IMG/VR virus record: IMGVR_UViG_3300014205_000003
Coordinates: 124,070-188,069 of that record
Direction: 5' to 3' (one strand)
DNA length: 64,000 nt
DNA from: a virus
Taxonomy: Duplodnaviria; Caudoviricetes
In this document: piece after piece, positions 18,337 through 61,721 of the stretch
How the letters are laid out: each line of letters opens with the position of its first letter
How positions within the stretch are numbered: the stretch's first letter is position 1
The notes under the pieces: generated by a model
Told to the model about the DNA's origin: nothing
What the model saw: the letters and a program-made list of their open reading frames with translations, nothing else
Databases searched by the model: none
Made by a program: the position numbers and the translations under genes

Positions 18337-19392
18337 TCAGTTTGTCACGGAAGGGGGACTATAGGCTCCCCTCTGTCGGATGTTGATGGCCGCATTGAAG
18401 TCTGCATCCATCTTCATTCCACACGCGGTACAACAGAATGACTCTCCCTTTCGGGACAGTTTGTCTACCGCTCCGCACAAGCTACATGTCTGCGAAGTAA
18501 AGGCAGGATTAATCCTCGTAAGGGTTAGTCCTGCTTCTTCACAAACCATCTGAAGTTTGTCCAAAACTTTTGGATAGCTCCAGCGTTGTAACTTGTTGTT
18601 AAATTGCTTGCTAATCTCGCCTTTAGAACCCTTCTTCACATCCTTGAGATCTTCGACTACAAGTTCTTGAATGTTAGTAAGATCAATCAGCTTTACAGAC
18701 TGATTGATCTTTTGGTCACGTTCCTTCAATGCTCTTTTAAATGCTTTAGATCCTTGTTTCTTCCTAGCGATTTTCTCATAGACATTTTCCATGCCTACGT
18801 CGTAGGTTTTCTGATCGGAAGAAGCAAGGAGTTTCTTGTATCCACAATCAAGGCCTAAGAATGTTCCCTTCGATGTACTGGGAGTATCTTTCTCGAAGAA
18901 TACATCCAAGTACCACTTCCCATTGACTTTACGTAAGCAAGAGGACTTCTTAAGAAGCCAGCCGTGCTGACTGAACTTGAGAAATTGCTTGTGCTTACAT
19001 GAAGGGATCTTAAGATTTATCTTGTTTCCTAGACAAAAGAGTTTAATCCAGAAGTCGAAAGAATTCTGCTTAGTAGAGAAAGTACAGATAAGTTCCGTGA
19101 GATTAAAAGTTTTTTGTTTGAGTACAGGCTTAGATGCTTTCTTTACTTTGTTCTTTCGAGCTCGTAGTTTCTTAAGTACGTCAAAGGCTTGAATGAAAAG
19201 ACATCTTTGAAGGCGAGCGGCGAGCCACGTTGGAATTGGAGGAAGTTGATCGAACTTTGTAGCAGAAGGATCTTTCCAGAAGTGCTCTACGTAGAGATTA
19301 AGTACTCTCAGGGCTTCCACACTGAAAGTATCAAGCTTTTGGAGCTTCCCGGCGTTTGCAAAGTTCAACGACATTTGTACTCTACGAATCAC
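18337..19392 (-). CDS. tnpB: TnpB (Cas12f-like) RNA-guided endonuclease
   Basis: RuvC-I GLDCG, RuvC-II VVEDL, Zn ribbon CSLC/CTAC, RuvC-III DADFNAAINI. Confidence 0.92.
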   Translation of the reverse strand: MIRRVQMSLNFANAGKLQKLDTFSVEALRVLNLYVEHFWKDPSATKFDQLPPIPTWLAARLQRCLFIQAFDVLKKLRARKNKVKKASKPVLKQKTFNLTELICTFSTKQNSFDFWIKLFCLGNKINLKIPSCKHKQFLKFSQHGWLLKKSSCLRKVNGKWYLDVFFEKDTPSTSKGTFLGLDCGYKKLLASSDQKTYDVGMENVYEKIARKKQGSKAFKRALKERDQKINQSVKLIDLTNIQELVVEDLKDVKKGSKGEISKQFNNKLQRWSYPKVLDKLQMVCEEAGLTLTRINPAFTSQTCSLCGAVDKLSRKGESFCCTACGMKMDADFNAAINIRQRGAYSPPSVTN

Positions 19393-19559: not shown

Positions 19560-19608
19560 TTTGCTGTTCCTTTCTCATTAATACTAATATAGCATAAGGA
19601 TTTTTATT

Positions 19609-20381: not shown

Positions 20382-22646
20382 GTGAAAGACAAAACGATGG
20401 CTCCTAAGAACATCCCAGTCCTGACACCCGCAGAACTCTCCGACAAGATCTTTGAAGGAAAGTACAAACACTCTAAAGATACTAATCGGGACGATATGTT
20501 CCGACGTAATGCTAAAGCCGCAGCCGCTGTACGGCAGCTAGAAGGTACTGCAGAGGAACTGGAAGAATCCTTCTTTCAACTGATGAAAAAGGAACTCTTC
20601 TTTCCAGCAGGTCGTATCCTATCGAACTTAGGTACTGGGCGGCAACAGGTTACAACATTTAACTGCGCAATTGCAAACACCATCCCGGATAGCATGGAAG
20701 GTATCTTTGACGTCTTGAAGATGGGTGCCTTGACACAGAAAGCCGGAGCCGGTATCGGCTATGACTTCTCTACGATTCGGCCAAAGAATCAACTGGTTAA
20801 AGGTGTAGAGAGCAAAGCGTCTGGTCCTATCAGCTTCATGAAAGTCTTTGACAGCGCTTGTCAGAGTATTATGAGTGCTGGCCTGAGACGTGGCGCAAAC
20901 ATCGCCATCCTTCGAATCGATCATCCAGACATCGAAGAGTTTATCACAGCTAAGTCCTCTGCAGGTGTACTGGAGATGTTCAATCTCTCCTGCGGTTTAA
21001 CTGACGAATTTTTAAAAGCTGTGGAAGAGAACAAGACGTTCGATCTGAGGTTCGGAGGAGAAGTCTACAGCACAGTAAAAGCTCGAGACCTCTGGGACAA
21101 ACTGATCAAGAACAATTACGACTATGCAGAACCTGGAGTGCTCTTTCTTGATACCGTAAATCGAAATAATTCACTTTACTATTGTGAGACTATTTCCTGC
21201 TGTAATCCTTGTGGCGAAATAGTTGGACCTCCCTATGGCGTTTGTCTGCTCGGTTCGATGATTCTTCCCTCGTTCGTAAACAAATATAAAACGTTTGACT
21301 GTTCTAGGTTTTACAGTGCTGTAAGACTAGCTACCCATTTCCTCGACAATGTCATTGACATCTCTAAGTTCCCTATTAAGGAACAAGAGAAAGAGGCTAA
21401 GAACAAACGCCGAATGGGTCTCGGTGTTACAGGCTTTGCAGATGCTCTTATCAAGATGGAAATTCCTTACAATTCCCCAGAAGCCGTTAGATTTGCCTCG
21501 GAAGTAGCTAAACAATTGGCCAACGCTGCGTACGGTGCTTCTTCAGATCTTGCTGGGAAGTTTGGTTCGTTTCCTGCATACGTCGCTGAGAAACATAAGG
21601 AGAGCGTTCCTTACAAAACCCTTGCGTTAGAGTTCCCTGATACTGCGAATAACATCGAGCGTAAAGGTCTTCGAAACAGTCACTTGATTAGTATCGCTCC
21701 TACAGGAACTATCTCGCTACTGGCCTCGAACATCTCTAGTGGAATTGAGCCTATCTTCGCTTACGACTACACTCGTAAATTTCGTACAGCTGATGGTGAA
21801 GAACTGTTCAAGGTCTACGACAAGGTGTACTATGAGTGGCTTCAGGCTAATCCTGACAAGAAGCGTCCTGCGTACATGGTGTCGGTGGATGATCTGACTC
21901 CTGATGATCATTTGAATGTTCAAGCGGCGTTTCAGAAGTGGGTGTGCTCGTCAATCTCCAAGACGATCAACTGTCCTGCAGATATCAAGTACGATGAGTT
22001 TTCTAAGATCTATATGAAGGCATGGAAGATGTCGCTCAAGGGGGCAACGTGCTACCACCCCTCTGGTAAGTTGAAGGCTGTCTTGGTAAAAGACACTCCT
22101 GAGAAGCCTGTAGAAACTCTTCCTATTGTGTCTGACGCTGTTCCAGAACGCCCTGATCAGCTTACGGGTGTGACGTACAAGCTGAAAGACGGTCAAGGTG
22201 TGTCGTACTACATAACCATCAACGATCTCGTGGAGGGCTCCCAAACCAGGCCTTTCGAAATCTTCTGCAGTAGCAAGAACCTTGCTGCCGCTGCAACACT
22301 CGCTACGATGACTAGGCTCCTTTCCACCATCTTTAGGCGTGAGAAGGATATCTCATTCATTGTCAATGAGTTGTCGCAGATTTCAGATCCGTCTGGGGGC
22401 TATTGGAGTAATGGTGTGTTCTACTGCAGTCTCCAAGCACACATCGCCGCATGTATCGACGCTCACGTCCAGGCCCTCTCTAAGAAGGGTGTGTTCAAGG
22501 GTAAGCATGTGAAGGACAAGACAGTTACTCCAGAGTCTGAGAAGAAGGGTAAGGTAACAGATCCTTGTCCTCTGTGCGGCAAGCAATTGATCCGTAAGGA
22601 AAATTGTCTGGCTTGCTCGGAGTGTACGTGGTCCCGTTGCCAATAG
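20382..22646 (+). CDS. nrdJ: Class II (adenosylcobalamin-dependent) ribonucleotide reductase with C-terminal TSCPD-like domain and Zn ribbon
   Basis: PAGRIL, TFNC, GIGYDFS, RRGA, AEPG, NPCGE, IAPTGTIS, SSGIEP, ISKTIN, RPFEIF, terminal CPLC...C..C..SRC. Confidence 0.92.
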   Translation: MKDKTMAPKNIPVLTPAELSDKIFEGKYKHSKDTNRDDMFRRNAKAAAAVRQLEGTAEELEESFFQLMKKELFFPAGRILSNLGTGRQQVTTFNCAIANTIPDSMEGIFDVLKMGALTQKAGAGIGYDFSTIRPKNQLVKGVESKASGPISFMKVFDSACQSIMSAGLRRGANIAILRIDHPDIEEFITAKSSAGVLEMFNLSCGLTDEFLKAVEENKTFDLRFGGEVYSTVKARDLWDKLIKNNYDYAEPGVLFLDTVNRNNSLYYCETISCCNPCGEIVGPPYGVCLLGSMILPSFVNKYKTFDCSRFYSAVRLATHFLDNVIDISKFPIKEQEKEAKNKRRMGLGVTGFADALIKMEIPYNSPEAVRFASEVAKQLANAAYGASSDLAGKFGSFPAYVAEKHKESVPYKTLALEFPDTANNIERKGLRNSHLISIAPTGTISLLASNISSGIEPIFAYDYTRKFRTADGEELFKVYDKVYYEWLQANPDKKRPAYMVSVDDLTPDDHLNVQAAFQKWVCSSISKTINCPADIKYDEFSKIYMKAWKMSLKGATCYHPSGKLKAVLVKDTPEKPVETLPIVSDAVPERPDQLTGVTYKLKDGQGVSYYITINDLVEGSQTRPFEIFCSSKNLAAAATLATMTRLLSTIFRREKDISFIVNELSQISDPSGGYWSNGVFYCSLQAHIAACIDAHVQALSKKGVFKGKHVKDKTVTPESEKKGKVTDPCPLCGKQLIRKENCLACSECTWSRCQ

Positions 22647-22903
22647 TTCATGAAGCAGTACAAACACTCTGAGTATTGTTCTTACGTTCTGCATCACCTT
22701 GCCTGTGATTGTGGTGCAGATCGCAGGACATGGAAAGAGTGGTTAGCTAAGGGGCTGCATGTGAAGAAGGGCGAACACGCTGTAGAGACGACTACTACAG
22801 GTCAAGCTCTCTTTACACACAGTCAGGTTACAAGCAATGAATCAACTATTCAGCGAGGTCGCTGGTGGTTGGATGATAGTGTAAATTGTCATTGGTAAAG
22901 TTC

Positions 22904-23222
22904 TTCGTCAGCAGGGATCATATTGGCATCGAAGGGGTTGTGGTGTTTCGCTAAGAGCTTGCTGACGGTCGAGGTGCTCGAAATCTCTCTTAGCGAATTC
23001 CTTTCCAGGTGTGCCCCAGTTCTCCCGCACTCTTAAGAAACGATCCCAGGGAGAACAACTTACTATTTAGTCTTGTCAGAGGGTTGACCATTGGCGCGGA
23101 GGTCACGTGCGTGTTGTAGCAGATGTTCCTCTGACAGTGTGGTACGATTCGCTCTGCTACAGCTCCTAACAGATAGCCAAGACTCCTCCTACCTGTACCG
23201 TAACGTGCTTAGAGGAGTCACC
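22904..23222 (+). ncRNA. Candidate structured RNA of two tandem pseudoknotted modules
   Basis: Crossing 9-11 bp helices repeated with different sequence in two modules of about 150 nt; no convincing ORF. Confidence 0.55.
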
Positions 23223-23253
23223 TTTCTTTCCCTATCAGCAAATAAGGAATCTC

Positions 23254-23793
23254 ATGTCCGTTTCAAGTATGCCTGAGTACAAATCTCTCTTTGATCTATC
23301 TCAGCAGTCAATCTCCTCAAAGTGCACATCTGTGCACTCTCTCCCCACAACCTTCAAGAAAGTTCTCTGGGCTCCGCACAGCTGGAACCTTGACTTAGGT
23401 GGTGGTCAGTACGAAGATGCTTCTATCTATCTGCAGAAACGTTTTGTATCCAACTTTGTATATGATCCGTTTAACAGGTCGGATGAACACAACGAACGCA
23501 TTCGAGCATACATCATAAGTAGTTCGTTTGATACAGTAACATGTTGTAATGTTTTGAACGTTATTAAGGAAGCAAAGATTCGACATACAGTCATAGAACA
23601 GGCGTACAAAGCATTGAAGCTCGGAGGGGTAGCCTACTTTCAGATCTATGAGGGAGACCGCTCTCAGAGGCAAGGAAAGACTTCTAAGGGCTATCAGTTG
23701 AACTGGTGGACGTCTTCTTATGTATCAGAAATCACTAAGGTCTTTCACGGACTATGTAATGAGTACGCTAATACTCTAGTAGTAAGGAAATAA
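23254..23793 (+). CDS. SAM-dependent methyltransferase-like protein
   Basis: NLDLGGG, YDPFN, FDTVTCCNVLNVI, LKLGGVAYFQIYEG. Confidence 0.8.
   Translation: MSVSSMPEYKSLFDLSQQSISSKCTSVHSLPTTFKKVLWAPHSWNLDLGGGQYEDASIYLQKRFVSNFVYDPFNRSDEHNERIRAYIISSSFDTVTCCNVLNVIKEAKIRHTVIEQAYKALKLGGVAYFQIYEGDRSQRQGKTSKGYQLNWWTSSYVSEITKVFHGLCNEYANTLVVRK
23324..23335. repeat. Palindrome copy 4 (inside CDS; 8-bp arms)
   Basis: agtGCACATCTGTGCact. Confidence 0.85.
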
Positions 23794-23825
23794 CCTAGGT
23801 AGGTATTTTATCTTGTTGCTAATCC

Positions 23826-23842
23826 TATGCTATATTAGTATT
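23826..23842 (+). promoter_or_regulatory. Putative extended -10 promoter of the HTH-tnpB operon
   Basis: TATGCTATATTAGTATT, identical on the minus strand upstream of the cassette 1 HTH (about 19580-19596). Confidence 0.6.
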
Positions 23843-23863
23843 CAATAGAAAGGCTAGGTTATA

Positions 23864-24031
23864 ATGGAATACACATCCGTTAGTAAGGCCGCTAAGATGA
23901 TGGGAGTTCATCCAGACTCAATACGCCGGTGGTTCGACGAAGGGAAACTTAAAGGATACTTGACTCCGTCAAATCAACGTAAGATCTCTGTTGAGTCAAT
24001 TAAGGTTCTTACAGGAGAATCTCCTAAGTGA
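23864..24031 (+). CDS. 55-aa MerR/excisionase-like HTH protein (not in the ORF track)
   Basis: MEYTSVSKAAKMMGVHPDSIRRWFDEGKLKGYLTPSNQRKISVESIKVLTGESPK; GTGA overlap with tnpB. Confidence 0.85.
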   Translation: MEYTSVSKAAKMMGVHPDSIRRWFDEGKLKGYLTPSNQRKISVESIKVLTGESPK

Positions 24032-25341
24032 TAAGAACGACTCGTCACAAACTAACTGATAGTAACGCCCTGAAGCAACAAAGGTTACTTTATGTTTTGA
24101 CTGAGAGTAAGAACGTTGCACAAACGTACTTAGACTATTTGTGGACGTATGGTTGTACTTGGCAAACTAAAGATAGTTTGGGCGCTGGTATCCTACACAC
24201 CCTAGACATATCAAGGAATCTTTTTGAACATCCGTCTATGCTGTCAAACGTAGATTTAGAAAACAGCATTCAGGGATTCTCATCGGCCTTATCGGCGCGT
24301 CTGAAGAAGTGTATACTTACTCAAGTCTTAGGGATAGTTGGAGCATCTATAGAGAAGCAGAAGAAGCGTTTGTGGCAGCTTAACAAAAGCATAACAGAAG
24401 GAAAGTCTTGCAAGCAACTGCTCAAGAAAATCGGACAGAATGCTCCTGTTAAACCAGATCTTTCTAACTTCTCATTAGAACTAAACACACTTTGTGTTGA
24501 CCTCCGACGTTTACAAAACTCGCCGTTCGACTATTTTGTGCAACTTAAATGCTTGGGAAAAGGTATTCCTTCCATTCGTCTTCCCATTAAGTTGCACAGA
24601 GCTGATAGGAAGTTTCAATCCTGGAGAATGCTTACCAGTTTTCTGATTTCAGAGAACGAAATACAGATACGATATGAAAAAGAGACACCGCCAAAGCTTG
24701 AACAGGGCTCGGTAGTAGGTGCCGATCAAGGTTTGAAAACAACCATAACCTTCTCTACAGGCTCTATCACTCCAGCAACAGACCCTCACGGTCATTCCCT
24801 AGAAGACGTCACTCATAAATTGTCTAGACGACGCAAAGGCTCCAAGGGCTTTAAAAGAGCTCAAGACCATCGAAAGAACTTAATCAACTTTCAGATCAAA
24901 CAACTGAACTTAACTGGCATCAAACAAATCAATCTAGAGAAGGTCTGGAACATTGGTTACAAGACTCGTAAAAGTCGATACTTGTCGCATTGGTGTAATA
25001 CACTCATCCGAGACAGACTGATCCAAGCTGGAGAAGAACAAGGGGTCCTTGTGAAACTTCAGCCATCAGTCTACAGAAGTCAGAGATGCAGTGCATGTGG
25101 GTTGGTACGAAAAGCCAATCGAAAAGGAAAGGAGTACAAATGCCTTTGTGGCTTTCATCTAGATGCAGATCTGAATGCTAGTCTCAATCATGTAGTTGAA
25201 CTCCCTGAGATTTCGTTTGACTTTCGTAAGTTGAATCTAAACAGAAAGGGTTTCTATTGGAAACCTGAAGGTCTGTTTGATTTAACTGGTAGGGAGTTTG
25301 CAGTCCCCTATTCCTCACAAGAAACTGACTCTAAGTTGTAA
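24028..25341 (+). CDS. tnpB: TnpB (Cas12f-like) RNA-guided endonuclease
   Basis: GADQG, INLEKV, SQRCSACG/CLCG, DADLNASLN. Confidence 0.9.
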   Translation: MIRTTRHKLTDSNALKQQRLLYVLTESKNVAQTYLDYLWTYGCTWQTKDSLGAGILHTLDISRNLFEHPSMLSNVDLENSIQGFSSALSARLKKCILTQVLGIVGASIEKQKKRLWQLNKSITEGKSCKQLLKKIGQNAPVKPDLSNFSLELNTLCVDLRRLQNSPFDYFVQLKCLGKGIPSIRLPIKLHRADRKFQSWRMLTSFLISENEIQIRYEKETPPKLEQGSVVGADQGLKTTITFSTGSITPATDPHGHSLEDVTHKLSRRRKGSKGFKRAQDHRKNLINFQIKQLNLTGIKQINLEKVWNIGYKTRKSRYLSHWCNTLIRDRLIQAGEEQGVLVKLQPSVYRSQRCSACGLVRKANRKGKEYKCLCGFHLDADLNASLNHVVELPEISFDFRKLNLNRKGFYWKPEGLFDLTGREFAVPYSSQETDSKL

Positions 25342-25360
25342 ATGCTTAGATTTCAGTAAC

Positions 25361-25640
25361 TGTCAAAGCAGGAACTGATACTGTCACATGCTGCAACGTA
25401 TTGAATGTGATAAAAGAGCCTGACGTGCGTCGAAAGGTCATAGAACAGGCCTACAAGGCTTTGAAGATGCGTGGGGTAGCGTACTTCCAGATCTACGAGG
25501 GAGACGTCTCCAGCAGGCCCTGCAAGACCACCAAAGGTTTCCAGATGAACTGCAGAGCTAGTAGCTACATTCGCGAGTTCCATGACGTGTTTCATGGCTG
25601 TGTTAATCAATACTCAAATATTCTAGTAATGAGGAAATAA
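25361..25640 (+). pseudogene. Orphan 3' half of the methyltransferase (diverged second copy)
   Basis: DTVTCCNVLNVIKE...VIEQAYKALK..GVAYFQIYEGD...N.LV.RK aligns with the C-terminal half of 23254-23793; no RBS or start. Confidence 0.85.
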
Positions 25641-25642
25641 GT

Positions 25643-26497
25643 ATGACAGTTGCAAAGATTTACCCAAACAACGATTCTGCTTGTCCTGTCTGTAAAGGTC
25701 CGACAGTCCTTACAGAACTTACATGTCGGCACAAGAAAGCGCTCACATTTGTTCTAAGCTGTAAGAATCACAAGTATTGCTACGAGTGTTCTAGCTCGAG
25801 TGTCTCTACACTTGCTAGTGCGCTCTCAGCGACATACAGCGCTATGAATACACCTCCTCGTATGCAGACTGGATTTCCTACGTGCCCTCGCTGTGGTAAA
25901 CAGTTTATTGAGGTTACGCATGACAGCAACAACTACGACTTCAAGTGTCCAGAGTGCAACTTGTGGAAGATGGCTCCTACATATGCAGAACTCGAACTGC
26001 AGTTGGAAGAGATAGACGCCGATTGTAAGGATTACGACAAGTCTATGGGACGGGCTAACAACATACGAGTCCAGAACGTGGTGAAAGAGAACGAGGAGCG
26101 ATTCAACAACATGCCAACGAATTCTACAGAACTCTCCGACGAGGAGAAAGAGAAGCTCCTTAAGGAAATGAAAGAGACAGGTAAGGGAATCAAATTCGAT
26201 CAGGAAAAGCTTAAGTACTCCCTCCTACCTTGGGATGCTGTTAAAGAGGTTGTGAAAGTACTGATGATTGGTGCACGCAAGTACTCAGCTTCAAATTGGG
26301 TAGTGGTTCCCGGAGCCTCTGGAGGCACTGGTCGATACGCTAACGCGGCTATGCGACACCTTGTTTCCTATATGTCAGGAGAGAAGAATGACCCAGAGAC
26401 AAAACTGTCACATTTAGCGCATTGTGCGTGCTGCATTCTTTTTCTGCTTGCTTATGATCTTAGAGGCATTGTATCTAAACCAGAGGAATCCAAGTAA
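25643..26497 (+). CDS. Zinc-ribbon repeats fused to a dATP/dGTP diphosphohydrolase (DUF5664-like) domain
   Basis: GIKFDQEKLKYSLLP...GARKYS..NW...AAMRHL...DPET.LSHLAH; several CxxC pairs at the N-terminus. Confidence 0.8.
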   Translation: MTVAKIYPNNDSACPVCKGPTVLTELTCRHKKALTFVLSCKNHKYCYECSSSSVSTLASALSATYSAMNTPPRMQTGFPTCPRCGKQFIEVTHDSNNYDFKCPECNLWKMAPTYAELELQLEEIDADCKDYDKSMGRANNIRVQNVVKENEERFNNMPTNSTELSDEEKEKLLKEMKETGKGIKFDQEKLKYSLLPWDAVKEVVKVLMIGARKYSASNWVVVPGASGGTGRYANAAMRHLVSYMSGEKNDPETKLSHLAHCACCILFLLAYDLRGIVSKPEESK

Positions 26498-26498
26498 C

Positions 26499-27620
26499 AT
26501 GTACAAAGAATTCCCCGCTCTGTTCAAGAAAACGTCAACAGGTGCCCTTCAGACCTGGAAAATCTGTGTCGACTACGACAAAATCATCACCTTCTTTGGT
26601 CAGGTCGGTGGCGCAATTCAAGAGACTGCTCCTACGATCTGTCAAGGGAAGAATCTGGGTAAAGCCAATTCTACTACAGGAGAGACTCAAGCTCTCTTGG
26701 AAGCTGAAGCACAGTGGACGAAGAAGCTGAAGAAAGATTATGTCAAGACTCCTGAAGAAGCTATGGCAGGCAAGTCCAGTGAGTTGATCGAAGGCGGAAT
26801 CCTTCCGATGCTTGCTCACAAGTTCAGCGAACAAGGACACAAGATTAAATATCCATGTGCATGTCAGGGTAAGCTTGACGGCCATAGATGTATTGCTGTT
26901 ATTGACGAGAATGGTAAGTGTACTTTGTGGAGTCGTACTCGTAAGCAGATCTTCAGTGCTCCTCACATCGTTGCAGAGATTGAGAAGAAAGCTTTAAAGA
27001 GCTACGTGCTGGACGGGGAGTTATATAACAGTCGATATAACGACAGGTTTGAAGAGCTTACTAGTTTGATTCGTCAGGAAGTTCCTTCCCCTAACTGTAC
27101 AGAGATTGAATATCACATCTACGATTATCCGATAGCGGATAAGACCTTTGAAGTGCGTAATCAGTTATTGCGCACTTGGTTCATGTGGCCTGAGGCAAAT
27201 TCTCATCTGGTTTACGTTGAGACTCTCAAGGTCAACGACGAAGACGAGCTGATGCTTGCCTTCAACAAGTTCCTTGCAGACGGTTACGAAGGTGCTATTG
27301 CACGCAATGTCGATGGCATGTATGTCAATAAGCGTTCGTATGATCTGCAGAAGATCAAAGAGTTCGACGACGCAGAGTTCAAGATTGTAGGAGTTGAAGA
27401 AGGTAAGGGTAAGCTTGCAGGTCATGGGATCTTCGTTTGTGTGACTGACGAAGGTCAGACGTTCAACGCTAAGATGAAGGGTTCTACAGAGGCTCTGAAG
27501 GACTACTTGGAGCATCCTGAGAAGTATATCGGAAAGCTGTTAACGGTACAGCATCAGGGTAAGTCTGCTAGTAAAATTCCCAGGTTTCCTGTAGCTCTTC
27601 ACATTCGTCAAGATGTTTAA
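26499..27620 (+). CDS. ATP-dependent DNA ligase
   Basis: PMLAH, KLDGHRC (motif I), LDGELY, YHIYD, GYEGAIAR, KIKEFDDAE, PRFP. Confidence 0.9.
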   Translation: MYKEFPALFKKTSTGALQTWKICVDYDKIITFFGQVGGAIQETAPTICQGKNLGKANSTTGETQALLEAEAQWTKKLKKDYVKTPEEAMAGKSSELIEGGILPMLAHKFSEQGHKIKYPCACQGKLDGHRCIAVIDENGKCTLWSRTRKQIFSAPHIVAEIEKKALKSYVLDGELYNSRYNDRFEELTSLIRQEVPSPNCTEIEYHIYDYPIADKTFEVRNQLLRTWFMWPEANSHLVYVETLKVNDEDELMLAFNKFLADGYEGAIARNVDGMYVNKRSYDLQKIKEFDDAEFKIVGVEEGKGKLAGHGIFVCVTDEGQTFNAKMKGSTEALKDYLEHPEKYIGKLLTVQHQGKSASKIPRFPVALHIRQDV

Positions 27621-27636
27621 CTGAAAGGACTTACAC

Positions 27637-28530
27637 ATGTCTTATATGCACGTGGACAACCTTTATAAGAACCAGACCGTTATGCTTTTCAAGCAGTGTT
27701 ACGCTATGGAGAAGATTCATGGCACATCTGCTCACATCTCTTGGAAGGCTGGTAAAGTCTCCTTCTTTGCAGGAGGAGCTTCTCACTTAGCATTCGTAAA
27801 GCTCTTCAACATTGAAGATTTGACTGCAAAGTTCACAGAGTTCTTTGGTATCGAGAAAGACGTTACGATCTTTGGTGAAGCTTATGGTGGGAGTATGCAG
27901 GCTATGTCAGCCACATACGGAAAGGTTCTGAAGTTCGTGGCTTTTGAGATCGGTGTTGGAGAACATTGTTTTCTCAATGTAAAAGACGCTCACGAACTTG
28001 TCTTGAAGATGGGACTTGAGTTTGTAGACTACGCAATCATCGACTGTACAGTTGAAGCTCTTGACAGAGAGATGATGAGAGATTCAGTTCAAGCTGTAAG
28101 GAATGGTTGTGGAGAAGGGCATAAGCGTGAAGGAGTTGTTCTCCGTCCGCTTGTGGAAATGCGAACCAGCAATGGTGCGAGAGTTATCTCGAAGCACAAG
28201 AGAGCTGACTTCCAACCTGAACGCAAAAATCAACCTTCTCTTGCAGATCCTGAGAAGCAAGCAGTTTTGACAGAGGCTTCAGAGATTGCGGATGAGTGGG
28301 TTACTCCTGGACGACTGGAACATGTCTTGGATAAACTGTTTGTCAACAATACGGCACCTGACATCACGCGTATGAAGGATGTGCTTGCAGCAATGGTTGA
28401 GGATGTTGTACGAGAAGCTGAGAGTGAGATTGTAGACAGTAAAGAAGTGCGTTCAGCTATTTCACGTAAGACTGCACAACTGTTCAAATCGAAACTTGAA
28501 CACAGCTTGAAGGACACAGGAACTGTATGA
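27637..28530 (+). CDS. RNA ligase, Rnl2 family-like
   Basis: MEKIHGTS, IFGEAYG, FVAFEI, EGVVLRP, KHKR..F, VT..RL.HV. Confidence 0.8.
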   Translation: MSYMHVDNLYKNQTVMLFKQCYAMEKIHGTSAHISWKAGKVSFFAGGASHLAFVKLFNIEDLTAKFTEFFGIEKDVTIFGEAYGGSMQAMSATYGKVLKFVAFEIGVGEHCFLNVKDAHELVLKMGLEFVDYAIIDCTVEALDREMMRDSVQAVRNGCGEGHKREGVVLRPLVEMRTSNGARVISKHKRADFQPERKNQPSLADPEKQAVLTEASEIADEWVTPGRLEHVLDKLFVNNTAPDITRMKDVLAAMVEDVVREAESEIVDSKEVRSAISRKTAQLFKSKLEHSLKDTGTV

Positions 28531-30591
28531 AGACGTACATCTTTCGCAAGATGTTTACGGACTTGTACTACATGGTGGATGCTCGGGGCATTCCGCACAC
28601 TACAGGGAACATTGAGATGGCTCTTGTGTTCCCCAGCGATGTATACAAGGAGCCTTCTGCTAGTGAGTACCTTCAGGAAGATGTTCCTTGTCTGCGAGAG
28701 CTGATTGAAAAAGAGTTGTCTCCGATGAATGAGAGTATGAGGTACAAGTGGAATCACATTTGGGGATCTAAGTGGCTTACAGAACCGGAAGCTGATGAAG
28801 TCTCCTTTGAGACAGCTCTGCAGTGTGTTGAATACGCCTTGCAGGATAATCTGGAAGTAGTCTTAGAGAAGAATGATGATTCCGGCGAGATGATGTGGCA
28901 TGTCGTTGTACATGACAGTGAAAAGTACAAAGATCCGTTCACCTCAGGCTTCTGGATGTGTTCGTATCTGACTAAGAAGGAAGCTGTCAGTGTCTGTGAT
29001 GTCATGAAGTGGAAGATTATGAAATGAGCAAACTCAAACACAGTGAAGACGACTATCCAGCTTGGATCTGTATGAGTTGTGGATGGAAGCTGGGCAAAGC
29101 GCCTAGTGAGAAAGCTATTTGTACATTTCACAACGGTACGTGTGATGTGTGTAAGACTGAGTGTGCTGTAACAGAACCTAGGGACTTCGGTCACCTTAAG
29201 AACAATTGGAGAGAACTGAAGAATGCGTAAAGACTTGAAGGCGTACCGAATGGTTGCAAACGCTCTTGCGCGTAGTGAAGATACTTGCGTGGCAGCGGAA
29301 GCTATTCGAGAGTTGCTGGAAGAGCTGCACAAGGAGTACATGTTTGTTGATGCCTTGAAGCGGACTGTAGAAGCTCGTATTGACTGCTACCACAAGAGCG
29401 TGGCTCTTAAACAACTCTTGGACGAACATGACTAACTACAACAAGTACCATCAGCTGATTGATCAAGGCCGATTGGGGTATGTTACGCCAGATGATCTCA
29501 CAGCGGCTTGTTCCCAGCTCCTCGAGCAGTTGATCAAAGCTGAGAACTGCCTTGTCTCAATTGGCAAGTACTGTCAAGACGATATGCCTCCAGATAGTGA
29601 CGATGCTCGTAATATTCTGCGGAGGGTGGACACGTATGACTGACTACAAAGAGTATCAAGCAGCTCTTGACGATTACTTGGAAGATGAATTTGTAAGTGC
29701 TCGAAACGTTCTGAGCAAATATGTAGATCTTCTTGACCAGTTGAAGTATGCGGAGAAGACGCTTGCAGACATTCGTGAGTATATCGAAAATGATGTGCGT
29801 AATGGTGACAGTCTAACTGCTTACGACATTCTGCAGAAGATCAAAACATATGAACAATGATATAGCTCAAGCAATTACAGACGCTTCCTTTATTGCTGAC
29901 GCTCTATCCAAGAATCATATGTCCAGCAGCGGCGACCAAATTCGAATACTGGTTACTGAGGTGCAAAGACTTCAGAAATGCTCAGAAGTACTTATAGACA
30001 CGATCCACATTCTCTCCGACAGACTAGAAAGTGCTGAGAAGACACTTGCAGACATCAAGCAGGATTGTGAGAGTTGTGCAGAGTGCGATGACGTAGATCT
30101 CATTGTAGAATCCGTTCCTAAAAGGATACAGGCGTATGAAGAAAACCAAAAGCAAAAAGTCTGACAAGTGGATCTTGGAAGTTACTACAGAGCAAGCTTA
30201 CTTGATTCAGCAAGCTGTCGAGCACATGGCGAGAATCCTTGCAGGTCAGCTCTCTGAAGTTCGAAGTGCTGTAGTTTTTCGTCCAAGGAAAGTAGAGAAT
30301 GTGGAAGAACTCGCAGACTATCCAGACAACGAGAAGATTGACAAAGCTCTGCACGACTTGAAAGCTTCTCTCTTTCCAGAGCTTCATCCCAATGCTTCCT
30401 ATGGAGTAGGCTCTAAAGAGTGTCATCCAGACTGTCACAGATATTGGGACTTGTATCAGATAATTCGCAGACCTCTGTTTCTGGATCGCACTAAAGATAC
30501 TGCAAAAGAGGATTCATATAGTGTTCTTGGCAACTCATTCATGCAAACCTCTGACCTTCCTCCAGCTCTCTTCAAGAAACTTGAACAATAA
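28527..30591 (+). CDS. Run of small hypothetical proteins, including paralogs 29428-29643, 29636-29860 and 29850-30164
   Basis: Shared L..AE..L..I..Y motif; overlapping start/stop codons. Confidence 0.6.
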
Positions 30592-30632: not shown

Positions 30633-32868
30633 ATGCTACTCAACGCGGCTCGTACTACTGTTTGGAACTGGGACAATGTCACTTCTTCACTCTGCCCTGA
30701 CTGCGGCGAAAAGCTTATGGCTCGTCGCTGTGAAGACAAGATCTGGCACTGGGCTCATTACCCTCTCCCTAAAGGTGCAACCCCTCGTGCATGTCATGCA
30801 GAAGAGACTGCTTGGCGCTTGCAGTGGAAGTTTGCACAGATGTGCAATGATGGCTGGGAGATCGAGAAGCGTGTAGAGCTTGAAGGTAAGATTACTGTTT
30901 TGGATGCTTACAATGCTGAACAGAATCAAGTAACTATCTTCGTTCACAGCACTTCACCTAAGTCCCTCGAACGATTCGAACGTCTCAAGCGCAGTTCCTA
31001 CAACTGCTACTGGATCAACTAAGGTCCCTTTGTCTGGTAACAGGCATTGAAAAGAAAGTGAATTGCTGGGACACCTAAAGTGCACATCTGTGCGCCATGG
31101 CAATCAGCAGCCGACCTCTTAATAGACCCTAGTGGCCTCTAAGAGAAGGTTCAACGACTAGTCCGTAAGGACGTAGGGTCAAGCGGCCCGAAGCACTCTC
31201 TCCTGAGCAATTAGGAGAATGATATAGCCTTTGCCACAGTGAAAATTGTGGGAGTCCTGATTAACCATCAGCAAACCGGCAGTACTTAGCGAGTACTGTT
31301 GAAAACAACTATACGAAGTAGAAATTTCGTTTTGTTTCTCAAGTAGTTTACAAATTCTGATTTGATGTATTATAATAATCCATATGCAGCGTTCACATAA
31401 AATTCGATTAGATCCTACAGTCAAGCAAGAAGTCGCAATGCGACAAGCTGCTGGAACTGCGAGATTTACTTGGAATTACGCGCTGGCTATGTGGAAAAAG
31501 CAATACGACGATTTTAAGCTAGGGCTGGCGACTAAACCAGATGTCTACAGTATCTCCAGACGTTGGACACAAGAAAAACCAGATTGGGCTCGAGAAGTTG
31601 CATGCGGTCTTCAGAACCGTGCAATTATGACTCTCGGAAAAGCTATGATCAGTTTTTGGAACGGGAAGACAAATTTCCCGAAATTCCATAAGAAGTCTGA
31701 CAAGTCTTCTTTCTATGTGGCTAATAGTCATGGTTATATCAAAGATGGCCGGATACACATTACGAATGTTGGAAAAGTAAAACTAGCAGAAGCTCCCCGT
31801 TTTGAGGGGCGAACGCTGTGTTATACTGTTTCTCATTCTGCAGGTAAATGGTTTGTGTCTGTTCAAGTAGAATTGACAGAACCTATTGTACCTAATCCGT
31901 CCTTGTCTGTAGTTGGTGTAGACGTCGGGATTAAGAACATTGCAGTTGCAAGCGATGGCACTTCGTTGCCAAATCCTCATTTTCTTATCAAGCAACAACG
32001 ACAGTTGAAATACTATCAACGTCAATTAGCGCGACAAGTAAAAGGATCAAATCGCCGCAATGCAACGAAAACCCGTATTGCAAAGATCCATCAGAAGATT
32101 GTAAATCAACGTCAGGACTGTGTCCACAAGTTCACTACAGCTCTTGCCAAAAACCACGGCACTGCAGTGATCGAAACACTGGACATCGAGAGTATGAAAA
32201 GTTCAGACAAGGTCTGGATGAATCGTGCTCTCCAAGACACCTGCATGCGCGAGGTCCACAGGCAACTGGAGTACAAGATGAGGGAGCTCGTAAAAGCTCC
32301 TAAGTTCTTCCCCAGCTCCAAGACCTGCTCGTCATGTGGAGATGTCAAAGAGTCCTTGCCACCCTCTATTAGGGTGTACAGATGTCAGTGTGGCTTAGAG
32401 ATCGACCGCGATCTCAACGCTGCACTGAACTTGAGAAACAGGAGTTGGGTAACAACTTCTACATGCGTGGAGACCTCTAAAGGGTCTACGAAGCGCAAAA
32501 CGAAACTCGTTGCCGCTAGGTAACGAACCTCGTATTACAGCTATGACGGAAAGGCCCTTGGCTCTGCTCGTACACGTCGATGCATGTGGGATGATACGTT
32601 GAAGAAGTACATGTTGTATCAACGCATGTTGAAGCCTGCTGCTATGGGTCTCTACAAGGCTACAGGAGGCGCTGTACATCGCTATGAGGGTCTGTACCAC
32701 TGTAAGGACGTGAATCCCTATTATGGCTATGGAAAGGTTCGTGACATTACTCGTTGGACAGCGTTGGAAGGTCCGTTGACGCAGAAGGCTTTGGAGAACT
32801 TCCACAGTGCTCTGAGTCTGATGAACTTCCTTCGCAGGGATGATGAAAAGCCGCAGGTGAGTCCTTGA
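30633..32868 (+). CDS. CoiA-like zinc finger/nuclease protein, split: exon 1 30633-31015, exon 2 32541-32868 (236 aa spliced)
   Basis: CPDCG...HWAH...C..EETAW...W, IE, LD motifs; the join gives in-frame ...NCYW-I-YDGKAL... Confidence 0.7.
31016..31310 (+). ncRNA. Group I intron catalytic core (IA-like, with P7.1/P7.2)
   Basis: P1 GGAU/GUCC with U-G wobble; P AAUUGCUGGG 31061; Q AAUCAGCAG 31102; R GUUCAACGACUA 31149; S GAUAUAGCC 31221; GNRA-capped P2, P7.1, P8 and P9. Confidence 0.88.
31082..31093. repeat. Palindrome copy 5 (inside the intron P5 region)
   Basis: aaagtGCACATCTGTGCgcc. Confidence 0.85.
31347..31376 (+). promoter_or_regulatory. Putative sigma70-type promoter for the intron tnpB
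   Basis: TTTACA-N18-TATAAT just upstream of ATG 31384; no RBS, so probably a near-leaderless mRNA. Confidence 0.5.
31384..32523 (+). CDS. tnpB: TnpB (IS605/IS607 OrfB type)
   Basis: HKIRLDPT..Q...ARFTWN N-terminal HTH; GVDVG, IETL, SSKTCSSCG, DRDLNAALN. Confidence 0.93.
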   Translation: MQRSHKIRLDPTVKQEVAMRQAAGTARFTWNYALAMWKKQYDDFKLGLATKPDVYSISRRWTQEKPDWAREVACGLQNRAIMTLGKAMISFWNGKTNFPKFHKKSDKSSFYVANSHGYIKDGRIHITNVGKVKLAEAPRFEGRTLCYTVSHSAGKWFVSVQVELTEPIVPNPSLSVVGVDVGIKNIAVASDGTSLPNPHFLIKQQRQLKYYQRQLARQVKGSNRRNATKTRIAKIHQKIVNQRQDCVHKFTTALAKNHGTAVIETLDIESMKSSDKVWMNRALQDTCMREVHRQLEYKMRELVKAPKFFPSSKTCSSCGDVKESLPPSIRVYRCQCGLEIDRDLNAALNLRNRSWVTTSTCVETSKGSTKRKTKLVAAR

Positions 32869-40813: not shown

Positions 40814-41290
40814 AGGCTTAAGCTGGAAGGGTATTTCTGGCATCCTCTAACGAGAGCACTCAAATACCCTGTTTGGGCTGGATCGGGGAAACCCTTTCCA
40901 GCCCTTCTTTTTAGCTATAAATGGCTATCCTGTAGAACCTTAAGTTATACCCCAGATATGGCATCTTAACTTACGGAACCTTCCTAGCCTATAGCTAGGA
41001 GGGGTTTCCAGAGACTTGTTATAGACACTTCCGTCTATGACGATTCTCTAGAAACGAATAAACTTCCGTATAAAAGGAGATTGTTATGATTAGTACGCGT
41101 AAGAGGGAAAGTTTATTGTGACCCCACGGAGAACCCGTGGGTCTGCTACTGAGAGCTGCCCCGCTCAAGAGCAGATTTGGGAAGATTGCTAATAGCGCTG
41201 TTAGCAGTGGACTCATAGGTCACAAAGGGGTATCTCAAGAGACTTGTTATATCTTCCTCGGATATGACGATTCTCTTGAGATTAAACATC
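40814..41290 (+). ncRNA. Structured intergenic region with a duplicated bulged hairpin
   Basis: AGAGACTTGTTATA...TATGACGATTCTCT at 41010-41049 and 41238-41276; multibranch stem between them. Confidence 0.45.
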
Positions 41291-51394: not shown

Positions 51395-51650
51395 CGTTAC
51401 ATTAAACAGCGTAAGTGTTGGAAAACTCTGCTGACAAGTGGTGTAGCGCCCTAATAGATAAACGTTGATTACAGAGCGCGAGGCGAACATTTCGAGAATC
51501 AACCTCGAATGTGGCGTGTTCGAAGGCAGTAGAGAGATCTGACAAGGTGTAAGACGCTTATGAGAGACAAGCCTACGTATACCTAGGTCGGTCTTGAGGG
51601 CGGTCACGCTACTGGGCGAAGGTCGGGGCCACAGTAGCTTCCTTTTCTCC
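51395..51650 (+). ncRNA. Candidate structured intergenic RNA
   Basis: About 250 nt non-coding with several complementary segments. Confidence 0.3.
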
Positions 51651-51654
51651 AAAC

Positions 51655-51666
51655 GCACATCTGTGC
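51655..51666. repeat. Palindrome copy 7 (intergenic)
   Basis: aaacGCACATCTGTGCactt. Confidence 0.85.
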
Positions 51667-60644: not shown

Positions 60645-61721
60645 CTACTTTTGAGCTTGGGCGACCATAGACTGCCCAAAGGTTCCGAGGTGTTTAGCGA
60701 GAATGTTGCAAGCTCCGACGTAGTCGGCATCAGCAGAATGACCGCAGCTGATACAAGCAAACTTCTCTCCCTGTCTATTGTCTTTCGACACCGTGCCACA
60801 TGCAGGACAGCATCGCGAGGTATTGGCTGGATCTACGAACACAACGCGAACACCGTTCCGTTGTGCTTTGTACTCAATCCAGTTGATCGCCTGACGTACT
60901 GTCCACGGTGCCATAGCTTTACGAAATGCTTTTCCTCTGTTTTGTTGTTTTCCTTGTTTGATTCCTCTAAGGTCTTCTAGTACGATTGTCTGTAAGGACT
61001 TCCAAGGCAGTTGATTTACGGATTCTCGAATGTACTGATCACGATGCTTACGAGCTTGCAGGTTGCTCTTTGAGCCTTTCTTGGAAGTCTTTACAGCATC
61101 GCAAAGAGGCGAAACTATATTTCCTAGGAATTTTCCAGAAGATAGTGAGAGAAGTTTGTTCTTCCCTAGATCAATTCCCAGTACATCTCCTGTGCTCTTC
61201 GTCTCTTTATCTACCACGTCAACAAAGAGTGTAATTCTGTCAGAATACAAAGATGCACTAGATGAGAGGACAGCCCCAGGTTCTGCTAGAAGTTTGTTTA
61301 GGTGGGCGTGCTTTTTACACGGAAGTGCAAGCCTCTTCCCTTTCTTCAGATATGACACTTTGATCAAAAGATCAAATTCTTTTAGTGATGTTGTTTGTAC
61401 AACAGTACAGGTTAGTTCGGTAAGATCTACAGGACCATTGTATTTAGATGTTTTGTGTGATTTAGTTTTCTTGCTCAATTTCCTAGGAGTATTGTGAATA
61501 CTGAGCGCTTTCTTAAATGCAGAGCCTCTAAGATTAGCAGACAGCCTTGTCTCCGTAGGCGAAACGAGGCTTTGTGTTTTGGCGTCAAAGGAACCTCTTC
61601 CTTTAGGCAAACGTACAAGGTAGAGGTTCACAATACGACAATATTCAGTACGCAGATTCGCAACAGCTTTCTTCTTAGAGGCTGTTAAGAACTTCAATGA
61701 AATGTTTACAGAGAGTTGCAC
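60645..61721 (-). CDS. tnpB: TnpB (Cas12f-like) RNA-guided endonuclease
   Basis: GIDLG, VLEDL, TSRCCPACG/CISCG, DADYVGACNI. Confidence 0.92.
   Translation of the reverse strand: MQLSVNISLKFLTASKKKAVANLRTEYCRIVNLYLVRLPKGRGSFDAKTQSLVSPTETRLSANLRGSAFKKALSIHNTPRKLSKKTKSHKTSKYNGPVDLTELTCTVVQTTSLKEFDLLIKVSYLKKGKRLALPCKKHAHLNKLLAEPGAVLSSSASLYSDRITLFVDVVDKETKSTGDVLGIDLGKNKLLSLSSGKFLGNIVSPLCDAVKTSKKGSKSNLQARKHRDQYIRESVNQLPWKSLQTIVLEDLRGIKQGKQQNRGKAFRKAMAPWTVRQAINWIEYKAQRNGVRVVFVDPANTSRCCPACGTVSKDNRQGEKFACISCGHSADADYVGACNILAKHLGTFGQSMVAQAQK

Follow-up and report, generated by a model that had tools for sequence, protein, structure and literature searches.

Tandem arrangement of related structured RNA domains, and pseudoknots within them, are features of several well-described systems. 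In the glycine riboswitch and the class I NAD+ 'nadA' motif, the leader of a same-strand gene contains two homologous structured domains placed head to tail, in which the stems covary and the loop and junction nucleotides are conserved. The type III antitoxin RNAs ToxI and CptI are tandem direct repeats, each folding as a pseudoknot, with nearly identical repeat units of 34-45 nt beside a toxin endoribonuclease gene. RNA C and RNA D of phage T4 are tandem small stable RNAs whose role is unknown, and stable RNA loci of this type lie among tRNA genes or have their own promoter. The omega RNA of TnpB systems is pseudoknotted and approximately 120-160 nt long, the group I intron core has its P3 and P7 helices, of 5-7 pairs, in crossing order, and for some small ribozymes a tandem intergenic arrangement is known. 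New riboswitch and ribozyme classes are now mostly rare orphans, and phage genomes are poorly mined in this respect.

A 355-nt gene-free gap (22899-23253) in the genome of an uncultured phage holds what is a statistically robust structured element of no known family, probably two paralogous pseudoknot modules that act as + strand RNA. With the glycine and 'nadA' riboswitches it has in common the head-to-tail placement of two related domains ahead of a same-strand gene, covarying stems and conserved loop nucleotides, but neither module gives a sequence or model match to them, and as compared with tandem-aptamer riboswitches each module is an H-type pseudoknot with two 11-pair stems plus a putative docking hairpin, about 165 nt in all. 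At that length, and with about 40% identity between them, the modules also differ from the short and nearly identical repeats of ToxI and CptI, and a type III toxin-antitoxin RNA was rejected since no toxin gene is adjacent, the neighbours being nrdJ, a gene for 82 amino acids and a methyltransferase gene. The likeness to T4 RNAs C and D is that of adjacent, putatively structured small RNAs in phage intergenic DNA; the present element, however, is inside a nucleotide-metabolism operon, and no sequence relation of T4-type stable RNAs to it was detected. For the TnpB omega RNA the resemblance is in size, in pseudoknotting and in the presence of eight tnpB genes in the same genome, one of them 0.8 kb away, whereas the element neither overlaps nor follows a tnpB 3' end. 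An omega RNA was discarded as a candidate, the nearest tnpB starting 800 nt downstream with the methyltransferase gene between, as was a TnpB guide-RNA scaffold or guide, there being no likeness to the eight TnpB 3' regions and only matches of 13 nt or less, the chance level, elsewhere in the genome. With the group I intron core the similarity is one of topology only, comprising the P3/P7 crossing order and a P8-like hairpin between the 3' strands (the hairpin being in module 1). P4-P6, the P, Q, R and S core sequences and an Rfam score are all lacking, the stems have 11 pairs as against 5-7, and the modules are in tandem and interrupt no host gene.

The stretch of DNA analysed, here termed the window, forms the final 64 kb of an IMG/VR phage record, which is 188,069 bp long and bears direct terminal repeats, and positions are those of the window except where the genome is specified. 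The gap is one of the nine longest stretches of the genome without an open reading frame of at least 75 aa, has stops in all six frames and has a GC content of 0.50 (genome, 0.457). The neighbouring genes are closely packed, and every one of them is on the + strand. The original prediction put the element downstream of nrdJ, which encodes a class II ribonucleotide reductase, and this is right as to order and not as to adjacency: nrdJ ends at 22646, so that the element is one small gene removed from it, the gene for 82 amino acids (22650-22898, + strand) intervening as a flank outside the RNA. The small gene has weak PHROG matches (E 7.6e-7) and no homolog in a large protein collection. On its other side the element abuts the start of a SAM-methyltransferase-like gene (23254-23793, + strand), which is preceded by an AAGGA Shine-Dalgarno sequence at 23244-48, and 34 nt separate the end of the last hairpin of module 2 from its start codon. 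A search of the gap for promoter-like sites of the sigma-70 type found none, and the lone terminator-like hairpin in it (22969-81) is weak and is inside module 1. A coding or pseudogene reading of the gap was rejected on account of the stops in six frames; the frame that continues the 82-aa gene has two, which is not significant. An alternative genetic code is unsupported because the stops are of mixed kinds.

Further downstream is a gene (25643-26497) whose product joins a MazZ-like dATP/dGTP diphosphohydrolase to a zinc ribbon, and after it come genes for an ATP-dependent DNA ligase (26424-27620) and an RNA ligase (27637-28530), the last being 4.4 kb downstream of the element. The region 25643-29027 is a nucleic-acid metabolism and repair cluster, and the MazZ-like gene hints at non-canonical base chemistry. 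A 16-nt long-range pairing, 75% complementary and with the core TGATAG/CTATCA, can be drawn between 22869-22884 and 23227-23242. It brackets both modules and ends just 5' of the methyltransferase Shine-Dalgarno sequence, and may be due to chance.

Module 1 occupies 22899-23066 and is the first copy of an architecture of two crossing helices, S1 and S2, and a hairpin, H3; module 2, with the pyrimidine-rich tail after it, occupies 23067-23232, both on the + strand. The six helices originally predicted are all present at the positions given for them and 100% complementary, the first two of each module crossing and the hairpin then following. As perfect repeats they comprise 22906-13/22960-67, 22947-57/22987-97 and 23019-26/23049-56 in module 1, and 23074-82/23128-36, 23115-23/23153-61 and 23181-88/23212-19 in module 2, with spacers between the arms of 46, 29 and 22 nt in the former and 45, 29 and 23 nt in the latter, and with module-to-module offsets of 168, 168 and 162 nt. 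When extended, S1 of module 1 pairs 22905-22915 with 22958-22968 (11 pairs, of which nine are Watson-Crick and two G·U; duplex energy -16.8 kcal/mol), and its counterpart in module 2 pairs 23073-23083 with 23127-23137 (again nine Watson-Crick and two G·U; -16.6 kcal/mol). S2 of module 1 has 11 perfect pairs between 22947-22957 and 22987-22997 (-15.5 kcal/mol), crossing S1 with a 0-nt junction, and in module 2 it reaches 11 pairs between 23113-23123 and 23153-23163, nine from the perfect repeat plus a U·G and a G-C (-16.2 kcal/mol). The H3 hairpins, 23019-23056 and 23181-23219, each have an 8-pair stem, with loops of 22 and 23 nt respectively, and that of module 2 is followed by ACCUUUCUUUCCC. 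In both modules H3 is bracketed by A...A and a pyrimidine-rich tail is conserved after it (AaCUUuCUuUu).

S1 and S2 have no nucleotides in common, and the junction of the S2 5' arm with the S1 3' arm measures 0 nt in the first module and 3 nt in the second. The order of the arms (S1-5', S2-5', S1-3', S2-3'), the short junction and the 11-pair stems are those of an H-type pseudoknot, and with approximately 30 and 15-18 nt the loops have the length needed to span the grooves. In such a fold S1 and S2 could stack coaxially in a rod of about 22 pairs. By their duplex energies the two stems are nearly isoenergetic in both modules, and in the proposed fold the two would form simultaneously. The nested-fold z-score of only -1.6 is unimpressive because nested folding can use just one of S1 and S2. 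As a local alternative to S1, GUCAG can also pair with the conserved UUGGC to form a hairpin, a pairing that displays no covariation because both motifs are invariant.

That so many repeats should fall together by chance can be excluded because the 188-kb genome has 237 perfect repeats (arms of at least 8 nt, spacers of at most 70 nt), or about 0.44 per 350 nt, and because 20,000 dinucleotide-preserving shuffles of the region gave a mean of 0.27 and a maximum of 4, versus the 6 observed. The locus is the densest inverted-repeat cluster of the genome. A strict structural descriptor was also applied, which demands a pair of crossing helices, each with 8 or more pairs and with little between them, and 3' of these a large-loop hairpin whose stem has 7 or more pairs. 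On both strands of the genome it matches the two modules only, and 368 kb of loci from other phages and from bacteria contain no match. Confidence that the gap holds a real structured nucleic-acid element is high.

Between the modules, at 13 of the approximately 30 base pairs both sides have changed with pairing kept (five such double changes in S2, five in H3 and three in S1, which also has two exchanges between G·U and G-C), and one terminal S2 pair is the only one lost. A covariance model built from module 1 alone (S2 plus H3) retrieves module 2 over its full length as its best non-self match, with 17.6 bits and an E of 0.007 for the 64-kb window. The claim that identical topology with different sequence amounts to internal covariation is thus upheld by the 13 compensatory changes and the model retrieval, though with no homologs found this covariation rests on two paralogs in one genome. 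Since the stems stay paired through many matched changes, the element is very likely a real structured RNA, and of an undescribed type.

Unpaired blocks have held their positions while the stems diverged. Loop L1 of module 1 (22916-22946) carries ATTGGC at 22922-27, CGAAGG at 22930-35 and the first four bases of GTGTT (22943-47, T22947 being in S2), and L1 of module 2 (23084-23112) carries ATTGGC at 23090-95, CGGAGG at 23097-102 and the first two bases of GTGTT (23111-15, the remainder being in S2). ATTGGC, CGRAGG and GTGTT, together with AACG in the H3 loop, are at corresponding places across the modules. The motifs noticed at the outset do have the same spacing in both modules, GTCAG-N10-ATTGGC-N15-GTGTT, and that string occurs exactly twice in the genome, once in each module. 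The further suggestion that each 3' loop can pair back (GCACT/GGTGC in one module and GTACC/GGTAC in the other) fares less well: the complementarities are there, but that between L3 and the H3 loop is not significant by shuffling (p ~0.12). For the 3' portions of L1 and of the H3 loop a pairing is likewise possible in both modules (22934-41 with 23040-47 and 23104-08 with 23203-07), with a shuffle p of ~0.03 that is uncorrected for the six comparisons made. Docking of the loops on each other is hypothetical, the pairs not being significant.

As to strand, five of the pairs that extend the helices read as G·U on the + strand, where the - strand would have C·A mismatches, and for one pair the opposite holds (p ~0.1). 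This is suggestive in favour of the + strand, in agreement with the orientation of the genes, and that the element is + strand RNA can be regarded as probable.

The contention that no known family is present is borne out by Rfam 15, which has no match in the window at gathering thresholds or in the element at E<=10, the families covered including riboswitches, ribozymes, pRNA, HEARO, GOLLD/ROOL and Y RNA-like RNAs. With the permissive E<=10 over 22600-23500 the sole match is a chance one to snoR128, outside the element. The negative result is meaningful because a genuine group I intron, at 31006-31251 (44.4 bits, E 1.4e-9), is picked up at this same permissive setting. A group I intron was accordingly rejected for the element, where there is no match at E<=10 while the control intron of the same window is detected. 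The control intron itself is under the Rfam gathering score of 50, so the default scan is silent there, and the introns of this phage are missed at curated thresholds. ARAGORN found no tRNA or tmRNA gene in the window. A retron msr/msd or a template RNA of a diversity-generating retroelement (DGR) was dismissed as no reverse transcriptase (RVT_1) matches anywhere in the genome, and a Y RNA-like element (YrlA/YrlB) as there is neither a Ro (TROVE) protein match in the whole genome nor an Rfam match. No description of such an element was found in the literature.

The search for relatives was similarly unproductive. Neither blastn against 50,697 phage records nor searches of viral, metagenome and genome collections with patterns and models found a homolog of the element. 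Such pattern matches as there were have the motif alone, with both stems absent when scored with the two-module model; because a small number of exact motifs underlies these searches, a family that has diverged could have escaped them. Within the genome no other copy was found by motif, BLAST or model, and complementarity of the element to other genome sites is none above chance. The loci or records of five methyltransferase homologs (44-48% identical) and five nrdJ homologs (at most 51%) do not have the element, and looser structural descriptors applied to the records of these kin yielded only chance matches, inside long reading frames. The phage is without close kin in the collections searched, its best nrdJ and methyltransferase matches being 51% identical.

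The element most probably works as RNA inside the operon transcript, and the function that is tentatively favoured for it is cis-regulatory. On this reading the gap would be transcribed from the + strand within a transcript of nrdJ, the 82-aa gene and the methyltransferase gene, and its two ~165-nt modules would derive from an ancient duplication. In each, S1 and S2 would cross with their 0-3-nt junction in an H-type pseudoknot that may stack to a rod of about 22 pairs, its long loops of about 30 and 15-18 nt presenting ATTGGC, CGRAGG and GTGTT, and the 22-23-nt loop of H3 may dock back on the pseudoknot loops, with the pyrimidine-rich tail next. The two sensor-like domains would then bind a small molecule or a protein and so set methyltransferase expression. 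Before insertion of the TnpB cassette described below, the leader would also have been ahead of the MazZ-like pyrophosphohydrolase, DNA ligase and RNA ligase genes. The composite statement, of a selection-maintained + strand RNA whose two duplicated pseudoknot modules serve as the tandem cis-regulatory leader of the methyltransferase gene, is possible and short of an even chance. Several features sit uneasily with a leader. There is no convincing expression platform. H3 shares no strand with S1 or S2, and its loop is larger than a classic terminator would have, while such alternative pairings as are conserved amount to short, low-complexity CU/GA-rich matches. Methyltransferase homologs in other phages are without the element, and stems that are all perfect are equally expected of a palindrome at the DNA level. 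A more ambitious version, and an unlikely one, would make the two modules founders of a hitherto undescribed class of large, triple-pseudoknotted RNA with a sensor or catalytic role, be it a ribozyme of a new kind or a tandem riboswitch that responds to a nucleotide-related metabolite. Such an RNA would control or process the transcript of a phage nucleic-acid-modification operon comprising the methyltransferase, MazZ-like, DNA ligase and RNA ligase genes.

The lack of a clear expression platform would also fit two stable, processed, trans-acting noncoding RNAs cut from the operon transcript and serving as decoy, sponge or scaffold for a protein of the host or the phage. In its compact pseudoknot folds the element is reminiscent of stable RNAs that resist RNase, and both modules end in a hairpin and the conserved pyrimidine-rich tail, but the gap has no promoter-like site, canonical terminator, tRNA-like feature or RNase P-type end, the element directly abuts a gene start, and its complementarity to other sites of the genome is at the level of chance; such RNAs are on balance rather unlikely. 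Nor need the selected entity be RNA. The six stems are perfect Watson-Crick palindromes that would work equally well as folded single-stranded DNA or cruciforms for replication initiation or recombination, or as palindromes for protein binding, and the genome has further repeat-dense gaps. However, the arms have no motif in common, which makes an iteron-type site unlikely, and their half-sites are 22-46 bp apart and interleaved in a manner unlike operators. Neither a GC-skew switch nor an AT-rich unwinding region is present, the conserved blocks are in the loops and not in the arms, and the extensions of the helices need G·U or G·T pairs on one strand only. A DNA-level element is, given these features, improbable.

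Eight tnpB genes and more than one group I intron are present in the genome, and a TnpB cassette is 540 nt downstream, so that a relic or accessory of a mobile element comes to mind. It could be a group I intron core that has degenerated, or guide-RNA scaffolds left behind by TnpB cassettes since lost. The order S1-5', S2-5', S1-3', small hairpin, S2-3' and next hairpin is that of P3, P7, P3', P8, P7' and P9. Against this, the Rfam group I model that detects 31006-31251 has nothing at the element (E<=10), there are only 31 nt in place of P4-P6, and no gene is interrupted, the 82-aa gene ending at its stop and methyltransferase homologs aligning from residue 3-25. The TnpB variant is countered by the dissimilarity to all eight TnpB 3' regions, by putative guides that have no targets and by absence of a cassette-specific 17-mer, and decay would not preserve 30 pairs across 13 double changes, making a relic of either kind very unlikely. 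Two ribozymes that cleave or process themselves, and in doing so part the upstream cistrons from the downstream ones, would be in keeping with a compact multi-pseudoknot fold that has few conserved single-stranded nucleotides. No Rfam ribozyme family matches, though, the helix order is incompatible with the layouts of HDV-like, twister, pistol or hatchet ribozymes, and no candidate cleavage site was identified; of such ribozymes there is scant prospect.

Two copies in one genome that retain ~30 pairs, helix spacing and loop motifs at ~40% identity are an unusually clean natural experiment, and they already define a testable fold, a 22-pair coaxial pseudoknot with a putative docking hairpin. 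The element is placed ahead of nucleic-acid-modification genes, in a phage crowded with RNA-guided nucleases and introns. Should it sense a ligand or protein it would represent a new regulatory RNA class, and should it sense neither, structure probing would still have a well-defined object in it. It is a good candidate for experiments, though as a singleton without a known host it is at present of limited value.

Other parts of the genome have gaps with repeats of their own. The other longest ORF-free gaps, approximately 475 nt each, are at 40814-41290 (genome 164883-165358) and at genome 91717-92191. They are rich in perfect inverted repeats, seven in genome 164897-165601 and five in 91802-92347, ranges that run past the respective gaps; the one gap searched with Rfam had no match, and by model they are unrelated to the modules. 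A 356-nt ORF-free gap at genome 6864-7219, also with no Rfam match, has crossing perfect repeats (6913-22/6953-62 and 6923-31/6973-81) whose 5' arms are directly adjacent, for which alternative hairpins are more likely than a pseudoknot.

The eight TnpB genes, with a Cas12f1-like TNB domain, are all in one 188-kb phage genome, and four of them have 87-93% nucleotide identity over their last 140-170 nt. Copies in the window are at 18337-19392 (- strand), 24028-25341 (+ strand), around 31384-32523 (+ strand) and around 60700-60890 (- strand). In several of the cassettes an identical 17-mer, TATGCTATATTAGTATT, is found ~25 nt 5' of the start codon of an HTH gene, occurring at 23826-23842 (+ strand) and 19580-19596 (- strand) of the window and at genome 102554-102570 (- strand), with a variant at ~51646-51662 (- strand). 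Its candidacy as a general phage promoter motif was rejected, as it is specific to the cassettes and absent at the element. The cassette nearest the element, 23794-25640, consists of an HTH gene (23864-24031, MerR/HTH_17-like) and the TnpB gene at 24028-25341, followed at 25374-25640 by a diverged copy (~72% nucleotide identity) of the 3' half of the methyltransferase gene, with the same stop and Shine-Dalgarno context. This cassette seems to have broken up an older methyltransferase gene and at the same time to have provided a substitute for its 3' half.
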